From contig DATDPG010000187.1 in the NCBI GenBank assembly GCA_035292885.1, positions 857 through 64,856 of the forward strand: a DNA stretch of 64,000 nucleotides. Direction: 5' to 3'. Positions within the stretch are counted from its first letter, which is position 1; every line of letters starts with the position of its first letter. Shown piece after piece: positions 1 to 50,992 of the stretch. The DNA is from Bdellovibrionota bacterium (GTDB lineage Bacteria; Bdellovibrionota_G; JALEGL01; DATDPG01). The notes under the pieces are model-generated. The model did not search any database, was not told the origin of the DNA, and saw only the letters and a program-made list of their open reading frames with translations. Made by a program: the position numbers and the translations under genes.

Positions 1-7
1 GTCGAAT

Positions 8-884
<877 letters not shown>

Positions 885-1337
885 ATCGCGCTTCTTGGTG
901 GTCGGAGCCTTTGCCCTATCGGTTCATGCGGAACCTCGCGCAACAGGAGACCTCGATATTTGGGTGGAGGCGGCTCCAGAAAACGCGAAAAGGGTGTATC
1001 AGGCCTTGAAGGATTTCGGGGCTCCCCTTAAGGATCTCACGGTCGATGATTTGTCAAAGCCGGGGATCGTGTTTCAGATGGGTCTGCCACCGAACCGTAT
1101 TGATATTTTGACCAAAATTTCGGGGGTGACTTTTGAAGAGGCGTGGACGACGAGGGTGACGATCGACATTTCCGGCTTGAACGTCCCTGTGATTGGAAAA
1201 GAGCTGTTTTTGGTAAACAAGAAGGCAGCTGGCCGCCCGAAGGATCTGTTGGACGTCGATCTCGTTGAAAAGCATTCTCCCCCACCCAAAAAAACCTAAC
1301 TGAACCCCGCAAGCTTCATCGCACCGCCGACGAGGCG

Positions 1338-1385
1338 ATGTACAAGGTGAAAAACAGCACACGCAACCGGGTGGAGGCGGCGTAG
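1338..1385 (+). CDS. conserved 15-codon micro-ORF (MYKVKNSTRNRVEAA) with a 'gagg' Shine-Dalgarno-like motif
   Basis: 'gagg' lies 5 nt upstream of the ATG. The copy at 2088-2135 encodes the identical peptide and differs only at four synonymous third-codon positions. It could instead be a conserved RNA or DNA element. Confidence 0.3.
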   Translation: MYKVKNSTRNRVEAA

Positions 1386-1414
1386 AACTCCGAATCCTGG
1401 TAAAATGACTTCCC

Positions 1415-1612
1415 GTGCGGCGTATTATGAAAATTGATCCTCAAGAGACCGGTACCAACATAAAGGAGGAAGACTTCGATCTCGCTTACTATCGATCGCT
1501 TTCAACAACCCAACGATTTCGCATGATGTTAGACTGGTCCCTTGCGCTAGGAAAGATCGGCACGCGACGTGGCACAGCTCGAAAACCTGCTTCGGTTACT
1601 AAACGCCTATAA
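1415..1612 (+). CDS. small hypothetical protein (65 aa); partner gene of nucleotidyltransferase module 2
   Basis: Overlaps the downstream nucleotidyltransferase gene by 44 nt. Core 'DFDLAYYRSLSTTQRFRMMLDW' is similar to small protein 1. An alternative start is MKIDP at 1427. Confidence 0.35.
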   Translation: MRRIMKIDPQETGTNIKEEDFDLAYYRSLSTTQRFRMMLDWSLALGKIGTRRGTARKPASVTKRL

Positions 1613-2054
1613 AGTCCGATACGTCATCATCGGAGCTGCGGCGTTTGTCGCTCATGGATGGTTCCGCGCCACACGCGACTTGGATCTATTTGTGGCGAAC
1701 GACGATGAGAACCTGGTTCGATTGCGCAAGGCTCTGTCGGAGTTTGGATACGACCTGTCCGACGCTACTACGGAGGATTTTAAGAAATACAAAATCCTTT
1801 TTCGGCAGTACGATTTTCCCTTGGATATTCATCCAATGGTTAAGGGAGCTTCCAGCTTTGAAGGGGTGTGGAAGCGTAGAAAGGCATCGACTATCGGAAA
1901 TGTGCTTACGAATTTCGTCTCGTTGACCGATCTAATCTCGATGAAACGAGCCGCCGGGAGACCGAAGGATCGCATCGACCTTGAGCAATTACGAAAACTG
2001 CAGCGAAAAAATTCAAAAAAAGGGAAAAAGAGAAGTCGGCCTCGATCAAACTAG
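1569..2054 (+). CDS. minimal nucleotidyltransferase-fold protein (AbiEii/MNT-like), module 2
   Basis: 'YVIIGAAAFVAHGWFRATRDLDLFV' and C-terminal 'AAGRPKDRIDLEQL', followed by a lysine/arginine-rich tail. It aligns with nucleotidyltransferase 1 along its whole length. Confidence 0.7.
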   Translation: MAQLENLLRLLNAYKVRYVIIGAAAFVAHGWFRATRDLDLFVANDDENLVRLRKALSEFGYDLSDATTEDFKKYKILFRQYDFPLDIHPMVKGASSFEGVWKRRKASTIGNVLTNFVSLTDLISMKRAAGRPKDRIDLEQLRKLQRKNSKKGKKRSRPRSN

Positions 2055-2087
2055 GAAAGCCTCCCGAGCCACGCCGCCGGCGAGGCA

Positions 2088-2135
2088 ATGTACAAGGTGA
2101 AAAACAGCACCCGCAACCGCGTCGAAGCGGCGTAG
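2088..2135 (+). CDS. conserved 15-codon micro-ORF, second copy (MYKVKNSTRNRVEAA)
   Basis: Same peptide as the copy at 1338-1385. 'gagg' lies 5 nt upstream of the ATG. Its stop codon abuts the stop of the convergent lipoprotein gene. Confidence 0.3.
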   Translation: MYKVKNSTRNRVEAA

Positions 2136-2136
2136 A

Positions 2137-3234
2137 CTAAGGCGTTATTGGCGTGAACAACGTGTAAAACGCCACAGCGGCCGAATAGTCTGCCCGGTAG
2201 TAGTAACAGAGATTTGGCGCGCCCGATTGGTAATTGACATTCCCAAACGAAGGACCGGTATATCGTCCGTTGGCATCTGTCGTCGCCTGAGTGCCGTATT
2301 GTGCCGAGGGTAGAATATCAATTGGGTTTGTAGGGCACGTGCTGTAATAGCCTACTCGATACCTGATATCCTGATTTGGAACAGCGGTGCACCCTTCGAA
2401 AAGCAACTGCAGTGTTGGCATAAAGGCCGTTTGGTTGTCCGGCTGCGATGTCGGCAACACCGCATCCAAGGAAAGAAATCGCAGTGTGGGCCACGTCTGA
2501 ACCGTGGTTTTGCTTGGAGGCACGTTTGTGCCGACCGGCGCTTCGACTAAAATATCCCCGACAGCGGGTGGTGTTGCTCCGGCATTCGCGGGGGCACGTA
2601 CAATAAACGAGATCTTGCCACCTCCGTCTGTTTGTAAGTCGACCGACTTCGTATCCCCATTCAATATAAGACCATTCTCAGGGGTAACTTTCAGGAGAAG
2701 GCCCGAAACACCGTTGTTGTACTTATCGCTCAACTTCACTACCCACTTGCTTTCTTTGTCAACGCTCGTGCACGTTGCTGCAGTAACAGGCGATAATGTT
2801 GTCGGAGCATCTCTTACTGCCATGACATCAAAAAAAACCGTCCGATTTTCGTCGTTGTTCGGGTCGGGAAGCAATCGAGCCTTCACCTTCGCAGCGCCGG
2901 CGACGGTCGTCAGCTCGGCGGACACTGTGGCTTTGCCGTCCAAGTCTGTCTGAATTTCCGAAGCTCCCAAGCGAACCGGGCCGGATTCGACACCAAACTC
3001 CACTTTTGCACCGATCAACGGGTTACCGGAACCATCGATCGCAGCAACGACCAGATCGGAAAGTTTTGTCGTCACGGTTGCGCTTTGGCTGTTCCCACCC
3101 ACGATGATCAAACGTTCGGCGCCTGTCGCCTGTTGCTGAAGGTTTTGCCTTGTCGGTTCATCCTGAATTCCGCACGAAAAGACGAAGGCAAAAAGTGAAA
3201 GGGGAATTGCCTGGAATTGAATTTGTCTGGGCAT
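2137..3234 (-). CDS. secreted lipoprotein with a bacterial Ig-like (Big_1/invasin-like) domain
   Basis: Signal peptide plus lipobox 'LSLFAFVFSCG'. GGAG sits 6 nt upstream of the ATG at 3234. Big-like stretch 'LSDLVVAAIDGSGNPLIGAKVEF'. The six-frame ORF extends to 3384, but the start with the ribosome-binding site is at 3234. Confidence 0.65.
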   Translation of the reverse strand: MPRQIQFQAIPLSLFAFVFSCGIQDEPTRQNLQQQATGAERLIIVGGNSQSATVTTKLSDLVVAAIDGSGNPLIGAKVEFGVESGPVRLGASEIQTDLDGKATVSAELTTVAGAAKVKARLLPDPNNDENRTVFFDVMAVRDAPTTLSPVTAATCTSVDKESKWVVKLSDKYNNGVSGLLLKVTPENGLILNGDTKSVDLQTDGGGKISFIVRAPANAGATPPAVGDILVEAPVGTNVPPSKTTVQTWPTLRFLSLDAVLPTSQPDNQTAFMPTLQLLFEGCTAVPNQDIRYRVGYYSTCPTNPIDILPSAQYGTQATTDANGRYTGPSFGNVNYQSGAPNLCYYYRADYSAAVAFYTLFTPITP

Positions 3235-3390
3235 CGTGGACTCCATGGTTGAAACTGATGCGCAATAAGAGCAAAGAAAATGCCAGAGATAAACAGGAAA
3301 AATAATCCTTAAATCCAGGTAGTTAGATGAAACATCCTTTTGAGCAGCGCGACTTTCCAGAAATGGAGTCGCGTTTTCGGTCACAAGACA

Positions 3391-3430
3391 AAAGAAAAGG
3401 GCGGCCGTTTCGGCCGCCCTTAACTTTTTT
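3391..3430. terminator. bidirectional intrinsic terminator hairpin
   Basis: Stem 'gggcggccg-tttc-cggccgccc' is flanked by an A-run upstream and a T-run downstream. It lies immediately downstream of the minus-strand lipoprotein gene that ends at 3450. Confidence 0.6.
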
Positions 3431-3449
3431 GGCTCTCAACTAGTCGAGA

Positions 3450-4802
3450 CTAGTTGAGTGTCGCCGTGAATACCTGATTAGGCGCACCCGTGTTCACATT
3501 GTTGAGCGCCCCACTAGCAGCTGTTTCAACGCCATCACAGTCTCCGTAGCCGGACACTACGTTCGCGCCTGGATCGTTTGCAACGCTGATACCTGCATAC
3601 CCACCGTTGATCGAGTAGATAGCACCAGCGTCCTCACCCGAGGCGGGCGTAAGAAACACACCACCAAATGTCCAGGTGTAGCCTAAGTCGCCGCCGCTCG
3701 GAGCGACCAAATATGTCGGCGTAAGTGTAACCGTGTCTCCGGTCACATCCACAGTCGCCTGTTCGGATGCGGTATTGTCCACATTTGGGTTCGTCGTAGC
3801 GTTCGGGTCCGCCGCGATGTCAAAGCTCGGTGTGCTAACCTCCGCTGCTACGCAGTTTGCGCCACCGACAAGGCTGGCATCCCGGTTCAGGACGATCGTG
3901 ACAGGGCCATTCTCGCCAATCCGATGATTGCCGTCATCGATATTGGAATAGATCGCAAAGAGACCCGTTCCGCTCGCACTCAGCGATATCGTCACGAAGT
4001 TATCATCCACGCCAACGGTGAACCCGCCGAAGCCCGTGTATGAGACCACAGCACCATCGACTTCATCCGTCGCATGGGCGGCGCAGTCATATGACGCGCC
4101 CTTGGTCAGTGTCGAGCCAGCGAATACCACTACGCCACTAGCATCGGTCGTGCCTGAAACGATCGGATTAAAGTCGTTGTCCGGGTCGATGTAATTCGAC
4201 ACACCGGGGTCGCCGACAACGTCAAAGTCGTTGCTGCCGTTAAATACACAGCGAACCGACACATCGGGGATTCCCCGGCCGCTCAACTCCGCGAGAACCG
4301 TGTAGTCATAGCTGATTCCCGTCGGGAAGATTCGGATGTTTGCATACAATCCCGGGCTGCCCGCGAATTGCGGCTCATTGCCGAATGCCGCTCCATAAAA
4401 GTCCGTGGCCGCATCTGGATCGATGAAGACGGTTCCACTGAATCCTTCGTAACCGCTTCTCTGCACAAACACCGGGAAAAAGACACCCGTGGGAAGGCCG
4501 CGGAAGAGGTAGCAGCCATTCATGCTGACCGTATTGGTCGTGTTGGAATCGCCCGTGCCGCAAGGCTGGGCGGTCTTGAACGATCCGTCGACCAAAGCAT
4601 AGATCTGATCTGTCGAATTATTGTCATCGGCATTATTGGTCGTGCCGAAAAAGTTCAGTTTCTCGCCGGATTTCGCATCCACGACGAAACCGACCAAAAT
4701 TCCGTTGCTGGCCGAAATCGAGCCGCCTTCGGGGCCGCTGGAACTGCAGCCGACCGCCGTCAGCGCGATGAGCGGCAGAGTTGCTAAAAGTAACTTCTTC
4801 AT
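3450..4802 (-). CDS. hypothetical lipoprotein
   Basis: Start 'MKKLLLATLPLIALTAVGCSS' is a signal peptide plus lipobox. GGAGG sits 6 nt upstream of the ATG at 4802. Gly/Asp/Asn-rich secreted domain with no recognisable catalytic motif. Confidence 0.65.
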   Translation of the reverse strand: MKKLLLATLPLIALTAVGCSSSGPEGGSISASNGILVGFVVDAKSGEKLNFFGTTNNADDNNSTDQIYALVDGSFKTAQPCGTGDSNTTNTVSMNGCYLFRGLPTGVFFPVFVQRSGYEGFSGTVFIDPDAATDFYGAAFGNEPQFAGSPGLYANIRIFPTGISYDYTVLAELSGRGIPDVSVRCVFNGSNDFDVVGDPGVSNYIDPDNDFNPIVSGTTDASGVVVFAGSTLTKGASYDCAAHATDEVDGAVVSYTGFGGFTVGVDDNFVTISLSASGTGLFAIYSNIDDGNHRIGENGPVTIVLNRDASLVGGANCVAAEVSTPSFDIAADPNATTNPNVDNTASEQATVDVTGDTVTLTPTYLVAPSGGDLGYTWTFGGVFLTPASGEDAGAIYSINGGYAGISVANDPGANVVSGYGDCDGVETAASGALNNVNTGAPNQVFTATLN

Positions 4803-4967
4803 TTCATTCCTCCAATTCAATGTGTGAGTTGCGTCCTTTTACGTTTAAATCGGTCGGAAGCCCTATCTGGTACATCCTGGTACGAAGCTGCCGAGTAGTG
4901 CCCGAATTCTGAAGGATCCCTAAAGGTTGTCAAACTTTTTTGGCCTGGTATCCCTCGGGGTCCCGCT

Positions 4968-6043: not shown

Positions 6044-6340
6044 ATGAAAACCGTTCCCGTCAGCCAACTGAAGAGTCGCTTGAGCGAGTATTTGCGAAAG
6101 GTCGGCCAAGGAGCCCGGTTTGTCGTAACCGACCGCGGAAAGCCAATCGCCGAGCTGGCGGCATACGGCACGCTGTCGACGGGAGCCGATCCCGTCAAAA
6201 TTCTCCTGCATCAGATCGAGTTCCGGGGATCGGTGCGCGGCCCGCTGAAGCCGGGCCCGCTTTCGGTGACGCCGAAACGTCCCCGTTTTCACGGCACGCC
6301 CGCTTTGGACCTCATTCTCCAAGACCGGCGCAACTCTTGA
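6044..6340 (+). CDS. Phd/YefM-family type II antitoxin
   Basis: 'MKTVPVSQLKSRLSEYLRKVGQGARFVVTDRGKPIAEL' is the canonical Phd/YefM N-terminus. It overlaps vapC by 4 nt. Confidence 0.8.
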   Translation: MKTVPVSQLKSRLSEYLRKVGQGARFVVTDRGKPIAELAAYGTLSTGADPVKILLHQIEFRGSVRGPLKPGPLSVTPKRPRFHGTPALDLILQDRRNS

Positions 6341-6768
6341 TCTTCATCGATTCCAGCAGCTTCATTAAGCACTATGTTGCCGAAGAAGGCACGGCGGAAG
6401 TCAACGCGCTCTTGTCGAGCAGTTCCGAAATCTTCGTCGCCTGGCTTTCCCTTTCCGAATGCCTGGCGGCGCTTGCGCGCCTGGAACGACAGAAACTCCT
6501 CACACGTGAGGAGTTCGGCGTAACAAAGAAGAATTTCTTGGAGGATTGGGAGCGGCTTCGCATTGTTCGCGAAACCGCCGAACTCGAGCCGATTGTCATC
6601 CGATTGATCGGAAAACATCCACTTCGAGGAGCGGACGCGGTCCAGCTGGCGTCCGCCGTCTACCTTCGGGAATACGATCTCCCGGTAACGTTTGTCTGTT
6701 CCGACCGGCAGCTCGCGAACATGGCGCTGGAAGAAGGATTTAAGACTGAAACGCCCGGCGCGGCGTGA
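6337..6768 (+). CDS. vapC: PIN-domain toxin (VapC)
   Basis: 'IFIDSSSFIKHY' supplies the N-terminal PIN acidic residue, and further conserved D/E positions follow. The annotated start is TTG, overlapping the phd stop. Confidence 0.8.
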   Translation: MIFIDSSSFIKHYVAEEGTAEVNALLSSSSEIFVAWLSLSECLAALARLERQKLLTREEFGVTKKNFLEDWERLRIVRETAELEPIVIRLIGKHPLRGADAVQLASAVYLREYDLPVTFVCSDRQLANMALEEGFKTETPGAA

Positions 6769-7647: not shown

Positions 7648-7938
7648 TTGATGCTGCCCCCTCTCTTCCATGATCTCGCCTGGGACGTTGATCCAGCCGC
7701 CGTAGACCCCGCGCTTCACCGCCGGTGGTTGATCGCGAGAGTCCTGGGAAGAGGCACACTCAAGCAGGTCTACGCTATAGAGAAAATGGTCGGCCGAAAA
7801 ACCATCGAGGAGTTTTTCCGGAACGGGGGCTTGGATCAAGTGGATGTCCAGACCGGTTCGCTTTGGCTTACGCTCCTCGATTTGCCGAGGGAAGAATGCA
7901 CACGGAGATCCTCACCGTCGAGCAGCTGGAAATTCTAG
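7648..7938 (+). CDS. hypothetical small protein; possible cognate antitoxin of the AbiEii-like gene
   Basis: 96-aa ORF whose 3' end overlaps the start of the AbiEii-like gene by 44 nt. No recognisable domain. Confidence 0.25.
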   Translation: MMLPPLFHDLAWDVDPAAVDPALHRRWLIARVLGRGTLKQVYAIEKMVGRKTIEEFFRNGGLDQVDVQTGSLWLTLLDLPREECTRRSSPSSSWKF

Positions 7939-8531
7939 ACAGAGTATCCGAGACAGGAGGGACGCCGTTTCATTTGGCCGGCGGCACCGCTTTGGGCTTG
8001 ATCCTCGGGCACCGAAAATCCGTCGACTTTGACTTTTTTTCAAACGCGGAATTCGATGTCGAAGAACTCTATCAGGAATGGAGCCGACGTCTGCCCGGTT
8101 TTCGCCGGACACGCCAGGCGCCCCAAACGCTTTTGGCCACATGGAAAACTGTTTCGGTGAGCTTCTTTCGCTATCGATATCCCGAAATCGCCCCTTTGAT
8201 CCCAACACCGTGGAAGTTCGACCTGGTCGGCTTGGAAGACATCGCCGCCATGAAACTGGAGGCCGTCGGCGGGCGCGGAAGCCGAAAGGATTTCATCGAC
8301 CTTTATTTTCTTTTGCAGGGGCATTTCACGTTGGAGGACGCGTTTCGCTTCTTCGAGCGGAAATTTAAAGGTACGGGCTACGATCCCTACCATCGACTGC
8401 GCAGTCTGTCTTACTTCGCTGAGGCCGACGGCCAGCCGATGCCTGAAATGTTCATGCCGGCGGAATGGACGAAGATTAAGGATTTCTTTTCGGCCGAGGT
8501 CCGCCGGATGTGGGGAAAACCGCTTCAGTAA
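7895..8531 (+). CDS. nucleotidyltransferase AbiEii/AbiGii-family (DUF1814-like) protein
   Basis: 'FHLAGGTALGLILGHRKSVDFDFF' matches the AbiEii GG...R.S.D.D motif. The six-frame ORF starts at 7725; the start used here is the ATG at 7895 (MHTEILTVEQ). Confidence 0.7.
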
Positions 8532-49948: not shown

Positions 49949-50992
49949 CTTGGCCCAGCCGGCTGCGGAGAGCTGGAGGAGAATCCCGGTCGATGTGGCC
50001 GATGTTCCGTCGGCTCCCACGGCCAAGGCAGCCGTAGACGATAACGATAATATTCCGTTCAGCTGAAAATCGGTCTCCGCGGGATTGGTTTGTTTGGTCC
50101 AGGTCGATCCGTCATACGAGAGGATTACGCCCTCCTTCCCGACGGCAAAGACCTGTGATCCGGACGTTCCGTGAACGGCGAGAAGATCCAACGACGTCGG
50201 GCTCGTCTGCTTGTCCCACGCACCGTTTGTACCGGCCGCCCGATGAAGAATCGTTCCCGCGTTTCCCACGGCGAAGAATTCGCCGCCGAGAGCGTCTCCC
50301 CACACGGCGTTCAGCGTGGCGTCCAGAATTCCCGTACCACTAACATCGACAGAGTCCCAATTGATTCCATTCGACTGCAGAACGGTCGCACGTCCGCCGA
50401 CCGCCACGAAGAATGCCTGCGAATTCGTGCCGGCGATTCCCATAAGATGTTCTGTCGTCCCCGATGTTTGCGCTGTCCAGGATATACCGTCAAAGAAGAG
50501 AATCGTTCCTTCGTTTCCCACGGCGTACACTTTGCTTTTGTCCGTACCGAATACGGCATTCAGGTCTACCGTGGTCCCGGAAGTTTCCGACGTGAGGGCC
50601 GTGCCGTCGTACTTCACTATAGTTCCGCCGGGACCGACAAACCAAACGTTCGTCTCCAATGTCGACTGCCGGTCGCAATGGGCCGATCGGATGTCCACTT
50701 TGGTGCCGTCGAGAACGGTGAATGTGGATCCGTCCGAAGACGTCAGCAATTTTCCGCCGTTGCTCCCCGCATAAAGAACCCCCGAAAGGGTCTGACAGAT
50801 GGAGGAGAGTGGATTCTCCAAGAGGGAGTTCGGTTCCGTTCCGGCACCTCCGGGCGGAAGTAAGTCAGCACCCCCTCCGGACGAGCCCCCGCCGCCTCCT
50901 CCGCTGGAGGTGCTGCTGACGGGACATCCGCTAAAAAGAAACAACGTAAGAAACAACGCTATGGAGACGGCTACCTTTTGACCCATGGACAT
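49940..50992 (-). CDS. lipoprotein with beta-propeller-like repeats (Ycf48/BNR-like) and a Gly-rich linker
   Basis: Lipobox 'LFLFSGC', poly-Gly/Ser linker and about 6 repeats of the form 'G..G.I.....G..W'. Confidence 0.55.
   Translation of the reverse strand: MSMGQKVAVSIALFLTLFLFSGCPVSSTSSGGGGGGSSGGGADLLPPGGAGTEPNSLLENPLSSICQTLSGVLYAGSNGGKLLTSSDGSTFTVLDGTKVDIRSAHCDRQSTLETNVWFVGPGGTIVKYDGTALTSETSGTTVDLNAVFGTDKSKVYAVGNEGTILFFDGISWTAQTSGTTEHLMGIAGTNSQAFFVAVGGRATVLQSNGINWDSVDVSGTGILDATLNAVWGDALGGEFFAVGNAGTILHRAAGTNGAWDKQTSPTSLDLLAVHGTSGSQVFAVGKEGVILSYDGSTWTKQTNPAETDFQLNGILSLSSTAALAVGADGTSATSTGILLQLSAAGWAKLL

Follow-up and report, generated by a model that had tools for sequence, protein, structure and literature searches.

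The window, a 64,000-nt stretch of DNA from a Bdellovibrionota metagenome-assembled genome (MAG), begins with three two-gene cassettes (a, b and c), each followed by a copy of a short direct repeat. Two of these copies contain the same 15-codon open reading frame (ORF), which an earlier, sequence-only reading took for a conserved peptide gene. We found that the repeat matches the 3′ coding end, or tail, of a GAF-GGDEF diguanylate cyclase gene whose stop codon lies just outside the window, and we number its copies accordingly as tail copies 0, 1 and 2. The array runs in the order gene tail, cassette a, copy 0, cassette b, copy 1, cassette c, copy 2, with the features below. Labels of the form L015 denote fetched comparison loci.

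8–591, minus strand: cassette a, a DUF5615/PIN-like gene (8–343) and a DUF433 gene (340–591), forming a toxin-antitoxin-like pair
611–654, plus strand: tail copy 0, with its 3′ 22 nt (633–654, CCGCGTCGAGGCGGCGTAGACT) conserved and its 5′ part (611–632) degraded
655–1313, plus strand: cassette b, a small ORF (672–884) overlapping a DUF6036-type nucleotidyltransferase ORF (838–1299)
1314–1388, plus strand: tail copy 1, reading LHRTADEAMYKVKNSTRNRVEAA and a stop codon in the GGDEF frame; repeat core 1324–1386, 15-codon ORF 1338–1385
1389–2063, plus strand: cassette c, a small ORF (1415–1612) overlapping a DUF6036 nucleotidyltransferase ORF (1569–2054)
2064–2138, plus strand: tail copy 2, reading PSHAAGEAMYKVKNSTRNRVEAA and a stop codon in the GGDEF frame; repeat core 2074–2136, 15-codon ORF 2088–2135

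Within the window, the repeat appears as a 63-nt element at 1324–1386 and 2074–2136, with 90% identity between the copies and a spacing of 750 nt. The 23-mer that begins at each ATG, ATGTACAAGGTGAAAAACAGCAC, occurs exactly twice in the 64 kb, with 0 occurrences expected. The 3′ portion of the repeat occurs a third time at 633–654 (3 matches against 0.35 expected), preceded by a 5′ portion, 611–632, that is degraded by one 6-nt gap and one 1-nt gap. The ORFs at 1338–1385 and 2088–2135 have an identical translation, MYKVKNSTRNRVEAA and a stop codon. Checked against the sequence, they differ as previously described, at four nucleotides (1361, 1370, 1373 and 1376), each in codon position 3 and each synonymous; a fifth difference, at 1337/2087, lies one base ahead of the ATG in the same phase. 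Among random single-base changes in these 17 codons, 21–26% are synonymous, and the probability that 5–6 of 5–6 changes are synonymous is P = 1e-3 to 8e-5. Chance does not explain the synonymous-only pattern. One antisense frame is equally invariant, reading YAASTRLRVLFFTLYIAS in both copies, because its codons share their third positions with the sense codons; the substitution pattern alone therefore does not identify the coding strand. Antisense coding was tried and rejected as a candidate: this frame, antisense frame 2, is conserved through the coincidence of phase, its listed ORF (42 aa) occurs in copy 1 only, and no ORF of at least 40 aa is listed in it across copy 2.

The parent of the repeat was found on L004, a 74-kb contig of the same MAG that was reached by exact-protein look-up and that extends past the window start (window position 1 is L004 position 9164). 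By blastn of the repeat against the fetched loci, a fourth copy lies at L004 9060–9125, where a called GAF-GGDEF gene (L004 8080–9126) comes to its 3′ end. The product has 348 residues, of which residues 187–344 align to positions 2–161 of the 161-position Pfam GGDEF profile (PF00990, 4.8e-46). The end of the gene reads DEAMYKVKNSTRNRVEAA and a stop codon, its translation ending in DDLIHASDEAMYKVKNSTRNRVEAA before the stop. The peptide of the 15-codon ORF is residues 334–348 of this protein. The ATG of the ORF is the internal methionine of the GGDEF-domain motif ADEAMY, the GAGG ahead of it is formed by Glu-Ala codons, and similarity in the parent frame runs 5–9 codons upstream of the ATG (LHRTADEAMY... 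in copy 1, HAAGEAMY... in copy 2). Orthologous cyclases, at 72–80% identity, carry the same terminal peptide with many differing synonymous codons. A peptide-motif scan of 173 related loci and the window returned isolated short ORFs solely in this organism's array, and all 20 motif occurrences outside the array copies terminate long GGDEF ORFs. We conclude, with a probability of about 0.93, that duplication of the 3′ coding end of the GAF-GGDEF gene gave rise to the 15-codon ORF, which marks the junctions of cassette insertions. The parent gene escaped the sequence-only reading because it ends, stop codon included, 38 nt before the window begins. The signature of purifying selection that it recognised stands, but as that of the cyclase C-terminus and not of a free-standing leader, regulatory or effector peptide.

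The GGDEF orthologue with the highest identity (80%) is on L174, a contig that stops 20 nt after the stop codon (1596–1616); the gene is followed by TAAGACT, as in copies 0 and 2. This assembly break might reflect repeated tails at that site too.

Over the last 17 codons and the stop codon, the true tail, copy 1 and copy 2 differ at seven variable sites, all seven of them silent (P about 1e-3 to 1e-4). Three changes are private to copy 1, two to copy 2 and two to the true tail, giving a star-like tree. The true tail is unique at the last two variable sites (gcC, taA), where copies 0, 1 and 2 share gcG..taG. The copies diverge from the true tail by ~8–10% in the last 17 codons, compared with 33–46% just upstream, where first and second codon positions differ. 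In copy 1, Arg and Ala occupy positions at which the host gene has His and Ser, and both are the states of the orthologues; together with its private changes, this argues that copy 1 is not a frozen earlier host tail, short of three reversals. Copy 0 is asymmetric: its 5′ half is degraded, and its 3′ 22 nt are intact and have an 18/18-nt core in common with the true tail, with 1 mismatch. We infer that the junction copies are chimeras, formed when the host gene and an incoming, homologous and functional tail recombined reciprocally inside the tail. On this view no differences but synonymous ones are seen because each copy once served, in some lineage, as a working GGDEF tail.

The cassettes themselves have separate histories. 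Cassette a, flanked by the true GGDEF tail (beyond the window edge) and copy 0, gave Pfam matches to DUF5615 (3.7e-18) and DUF433 (9.3e-24) and has no counterpart in the orthologous loci L014–L016. Cassettes b and c each consist of a 65–70-aa ORF and a 153–161-aa nucleotidyltransferase of the DUF6036/DUF2204 type, with weak Pfam DUF6036/AbiEii matches for the enzyme of b and matches to DUF6036 (5.7e-8) and DUF2204 (4.1e-7) for that of c. These two enzymes share 34% amino acid identity, whereas their repeats are 90% identical, and thus the repeat did not diverge along with the cassette genes. A relative of cassette b, 77% identical, sits at a different site in L015, and the closest relatives of the cassette c enzyme (61–68%; P0002–P0004) belong to other organisms. 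Since both enzymes are closer to foreign proteins than to each other, cassettes b and c were acquired separately. Around the nearest relatives of the cassette c enzyme (L007–L013), neither the element nor a significant flanking repeat is present; the element is therefore a property of the insertion site, not of the cassette family.

Empty sites occur in five related Bdellovibrionota genomes (L014, L015, L016, L175 and L176). Here DivIVA-YggS-Maf, on the minus strand, is followed by GGDEF-Tam41 and TruA, with ProC between in 4/5; the gap from the GGDEF stop codon to the Tam41(-like) gene is 7–24 nt, with no cassettes and no second tail copy. In the organism of the window, ~5 kb are inserted between the GGDEF and Tam41 positions of these relatives, and copy 2 is followed by two minus-strand genes. 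The two genes (window 2137–4820) encode a 415-aa Big_1-domain protein and a 456-aa protein without a family assignment, and the empty-site relatives have neither. The Big_1 block starts exactly at the end of copy 2, the Big_1 stop codon (2137–2139) overlapping the ACT that follows the TAG of the tail. Further addiction-type inserts absent from relatives lie in the same Maf/GGDEF/Tam41/ProC/TruA block: a Phd/PIN pair between Tam41 and ProC (window 6044–6768), an AbiEii-like insert between ProC and TruA (window 7725–8531) and a Phd/PIN pair between Maf and GGDEF (L004 7363–8072). No flanking direct repeats were found at these two Phd/PIN inserts and the AbiEii insert.

Members of the same cassette family are flanked by repeats at other targets. 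A metagenome scan with the nucleotidyltransferase alignment gave 80 loci, about 67 of them testable for flanking repeats, and 8 of the about 67 testable cassettes had flanking direct repeats above the control maximum (33–58 bits against 25.7). Repeat lengths were 22–66 nt in the array, 23 nt in L015, 29+21 nt in L167 and 28–54 nt in six more loci; they vary from 17 to 63 nt between events (17–60 nt around the homologous cassettes elsewhere), with sequences specific to each event. The L015 relative of cassette b (77% identity) lies behind YggS, and the coding tail of that gene (AAIFGPR) recurs on either side of it as a perfect, sharply bounded 23-nt repeat; the left end of this cassette, TGTGATAGAAT, is the same as that of cassette b in the window and lies within 1–2 nt of the repeat. 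In L167, a nucleotidyltransferase cassette directly follows a 5S ribosomal RNA (rRNA) gene (Rfam RF00001, 77 bits), and the repeat is the 5S 3′ end; in the distal copy, a 55-nt insert separates two identical blocks of 21 and 29 nt, and the 5S-identical blocks adjoin homologous terminator regions that are ~40% diverged. At this locus (L167 526–637 and 1395–1505), the 55-nt insert of the distal pseudo-5S fragment is hairpin-like, and the reading frame of the enzyme enters 5S-derived sequence and ends at the TAG of GATGGTAG. L166 (341–2645) holds an array of at least three cassettes of about 0.6–0.75 kb, two with nucleotidyltransferases, separated by copies beginning TCAGACGGAGTAAATTAACC; this repeat is derived from the upstream region of a gene for a major facilitator superfamily (MFS) transporter, with ~120 nt of promoter region duplicated (972–1093 and 2522–2645). 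Tandem nucleotidyltransferase cassettes are also found in L100, L114 and L120.

We propose that three addiction-type cassettes were inserted successively at the end of the GGDEF gene, each insertion leaving one extra copy of the last ~20 codons and the stop codon. The cassette, or DNA imported with it, would supply a functional replacement tail. Recombination inside the tail, either site-specific or by short homology of the Campbell type, would then join the new tail to the gene, and the previous tail would be pushed downstream, much as happens to icd when prophage e14 or phage 21 integrates. The copies left behind would be non-functional gene fragments, recombination substrates at most, and not peptide genes.

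A rival that differs in mechanism only, and agrees that the repeat is the tail of the gene, is an origin in situ. Here a long target-site duplication would arise by a non-site-specific mechanism, the copies would be identical at insertion, and the differences would come later, from evolution or from allelic replacement of the working tail. We consider this possible but on balance unlikely. The L015 repeat is perfect and sharply bounded, repeat lengths and sequences vary among events, no recombinase lies nearby, and there is a precedent in 46-bp repeats over gene 3′ ends without mobility genes (PMC2853133). Against it, the three private changes of copy 1 are all synonymous (P about 0.01–0.02) and are accompanied by the orthologue-like Arg and Ala; divergence rises sharply upstream of the last 17 codons, copy 0 is degraded over half its length, and in L167 blocks identical to 5S stand against terminator regions ~40% diverged. 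In both the window array and L167, the copies are chimeric, and their differences respect constraint. A foreign tail better accounts for the star-like pattern of silent differences, for the orthologue-like residues of copy 1 and for the chimeric nature of the junctions; duplication in situ better accounts for the perfect repeat of L015 and for the range of targets used. Both routes may operate, with duplication building the structure and homologous exchange in the conserved tail spreading or stacking the cassettes.

Several observations weigh against recombination with an imported tail, or qualify our account of the locus as a whole. The perfect L015 repeat has no diverged flanking homology, and plain in-situ target duplication fits it equally well. 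Related cassettes have different targets (GGDEF, YggS, 5S rRNA and a promoter region), and the tail is no fixed part of the cassette. Precomputed Pfam assignments gave no integrase or recombinase families among the called genes of L004 1–20462, and no integrase or transposase was found in the cassettes, which encode two small proteins each, or in the ~9 kb upstream and 11 kb downstream. No strain variants of the array were found, as 6/6 public contigs of this organism are identical here. Lastly, the 15-codon ORFs may, judging from their sequence, be translated incidentally.

Another account of the array, an ancient tandem duplication of a unit made of cassette and tail, would have the cassettes diverge while the tails were homogenised by gene conversion from the working tail. 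Cassettes b and c are indeed alike in their two-gene architecture and orientation. However, enzymes that are 61–77% identical to proteins of other organisms and 34% identical to each other are hard to derive from one local duplication, cassette a is unrelated and inverted, and the sites of the relatives are empty. We therefore regard this history as very improbable.

More improbable still is an independently translated 15-aa peptide, encoded after each cassette and held by purifying selection. In its favour are the intact ATG...TAG frame in two copies, the synonymous-only differences and the GAGG upstream. The peptide, however, is identical to the C-terminal 15 residues of the neighbouring GGDEF protein, with in-frame homology reaching several codons further upstream than the ATG. 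The GAGG, which had been placed 5 nt before the ATG, is Glu-Ala coding sequence that, at 1332–1335, ends 2 nt before the ATG at 1338, a poor Shine-Dalgarno spacing. The reading frame is lost in copy 0; this had been taken to mean that the peptide is dispensable at the array edge, but the copy is one junction of a different cassette and is no evidence on dispensability. The peptide has no isolated copy in the other loci examined, and an exact scan for the 23-mer in 185,579 species genomes (genome_contigs) gave 0 matches, so the element is not a dispersed repeat in sequenced species.

The competing idea, that a structured nucleic-acid site (an attC-like hairpin, a terminator or a cis-regulatory RNA) lies in frame by accident, is as improbable: the element does recur after each cassette at ~740-nt spacing, like an integron cassette array, but all three copies fold no better than shuffles on either strand (z +0.06 to −1.2), Rfam gave no match on the element in a search of window 1–4000 at E ≤ 10, no RYYYAAC...GTTRRRY core pair of the attC type occurs in 560–2200, no terminator-like site was found, and changes strictly in phase 3 are a coding signature and not a pairing signature.

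The locus belongs to two known kinds of arrangement: duplication of an attachment site at a gene end, and insertion with long target duplication. In the icd/icdC case at prophage e14 (and phage 21), the element integrates into the 3′ end of the gene and supplies a replacement end; the displaced icdC differs from the working end mostly synonymously, and excision gives a chimeric functional gene (PMC6379469; PMC13626634). As there, a direct repeat of the last codons of the host gene flanks the insert, the gene remains intact, and relatives have a single-copy empty site. Unlike e14, which is a prophage of 15 kb that encodes an integrase and has a duplicated segment of 163 bp, the inserts here are two-gene cassettes of 0.65–0.7 kb without a recombinase, three are stacked, and the repeat is 22–66 nt long.

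Restriction-modification (R-M) units without mobility genes provide the second likeness. They are flanked by long, event-specific target repeats, for example of 46 bp over a gene 3′ end, and a related genome with an empty site has the repeat only once (PMC2853133, Furuta, Abe & Kobayashi 2010); "insertion with long target duplication" of R-M units goes back to Nobusato et al. 2000, as cited in PMC2853133. Both cases involve a selfish or addiction-type insert without mobility genes and event-specific repeats of variable length. The R-M repeats, however, are near-identical, whereas the cargo here is toxin-antitoxin-like, three cassettes form an array, and the copies are diverged at silent sites and chimeric at their junctions, which suggests that a foreign tail recombined in.

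Integron arrays and CALINs (attC clusters without an integrase) resemble the locus in their tandem cassettes of ~0.7 kb, often toxin-antitoxin cassettes, each with a similar repeat. They differ in that the repeat here has no attC architecture or folding and is the coding end of a neighbouring gene, and in that one cassette is inverted while the repeats are still direct. In Microcystis aeruginosa, a ParE/ParD-like module lies between 152-bp direct repeats downstream of the MaOC1 gene, and its presence varies by strain (PMC7935541). There too a toxin-antitoxin pair directly follows a host gene, with a direct repeat on each side, but those repeats start 14 bp after the stop codon, contain inverted repeats and are no copies of a coding tail.

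For genome scanning, the locus carries a caution: a short ORF with a perfect signature of purifying selection can be a displaced fragment of a neighbouring gene, and this parent may lie just beyond the stretch that is read. It is also a clean natural example of stepwise accretion of addiction cassettes at the end of a gene in a housekeeping operon, with the empty site in five relatives. The YggS and 5S rRNA cases extend long target duplication, a poorly understood phenomenon, from R-M to toxin-antitoxin-like units, and the chimeric, silent-site-diverged copies are sequence evidence on how such insertions form. More tentatively, and with considerable doubt, we speculate that the DUF6036 small-ORF pairs and the toxin-antitoxin pairs that accompany them are recombinase-less mobile cassettes at the 3′ ends of conserved protein and rRNA genes. 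They would carry or acquire working mimics of the target end, recombine there and so build integron-like arrays whose "attachment sites" are copies of a coding tail that selection on the host protein leaves variable at silent sites. A recombinase-less mobile system that mimics the ends of its target genes would, if true, be of greater interest.

The gene organisation of the cassettes has further regularities. In every cassette of the nucleotidyltransferase type, a small ORF of 64–72 aa overlaps the start of the DUF6036 ORF by ~44–47 nt in a different frame, and the same two-ORF overlap occurs at L011 (3850–4044 / 4001–4453) and L007 (about 3856–4038 / 4001–4444). From its sequence, the conserved overlapping pair could be a toxin-antitoxin-like pair or yield a frameshift-joined product. 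The small cassette proteins matched no Pfam, NCBIfam or PADLOC family. For the cassette proteins as a whole, NCBIfam gave 0 matches, and the single PADLOC match was a sub-significant one to AbiEi (E = 0.004) for the DUF5615 protein, so that neither names these proteins. Read by eye, extended −10-like motifs occur at 657–665 (TGaTAGAAT, cassette b), at 1398–1406 (TGgTAAAAT, cassette c) and, on the minus strand, at 610–602 (TGaTATAAT, cassette a), ~3–45 nt from the repeat junction and 7–11 nt before the first possible start codon. This placement suggests leaderless transcripts of the cassettes. A sigma-70 consensus scan, which requires a −35 element, reported no promoter at the cassette starts.

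Elsewhere in the window, two minus/plus regions have convergent ends, and the strong G+C-rich hairpin between these ends, aaaagggcggccgtttcggccgccctt (3388–3425), is probably a terminator. Weak Rfam small RNA matches at 3290–3500, away from the element, trace to this hairpin. A further direct repeat of 37 nt occurs at 50247–50283 and 50499–50535, its two copies 84% identical and 252 nt apart.

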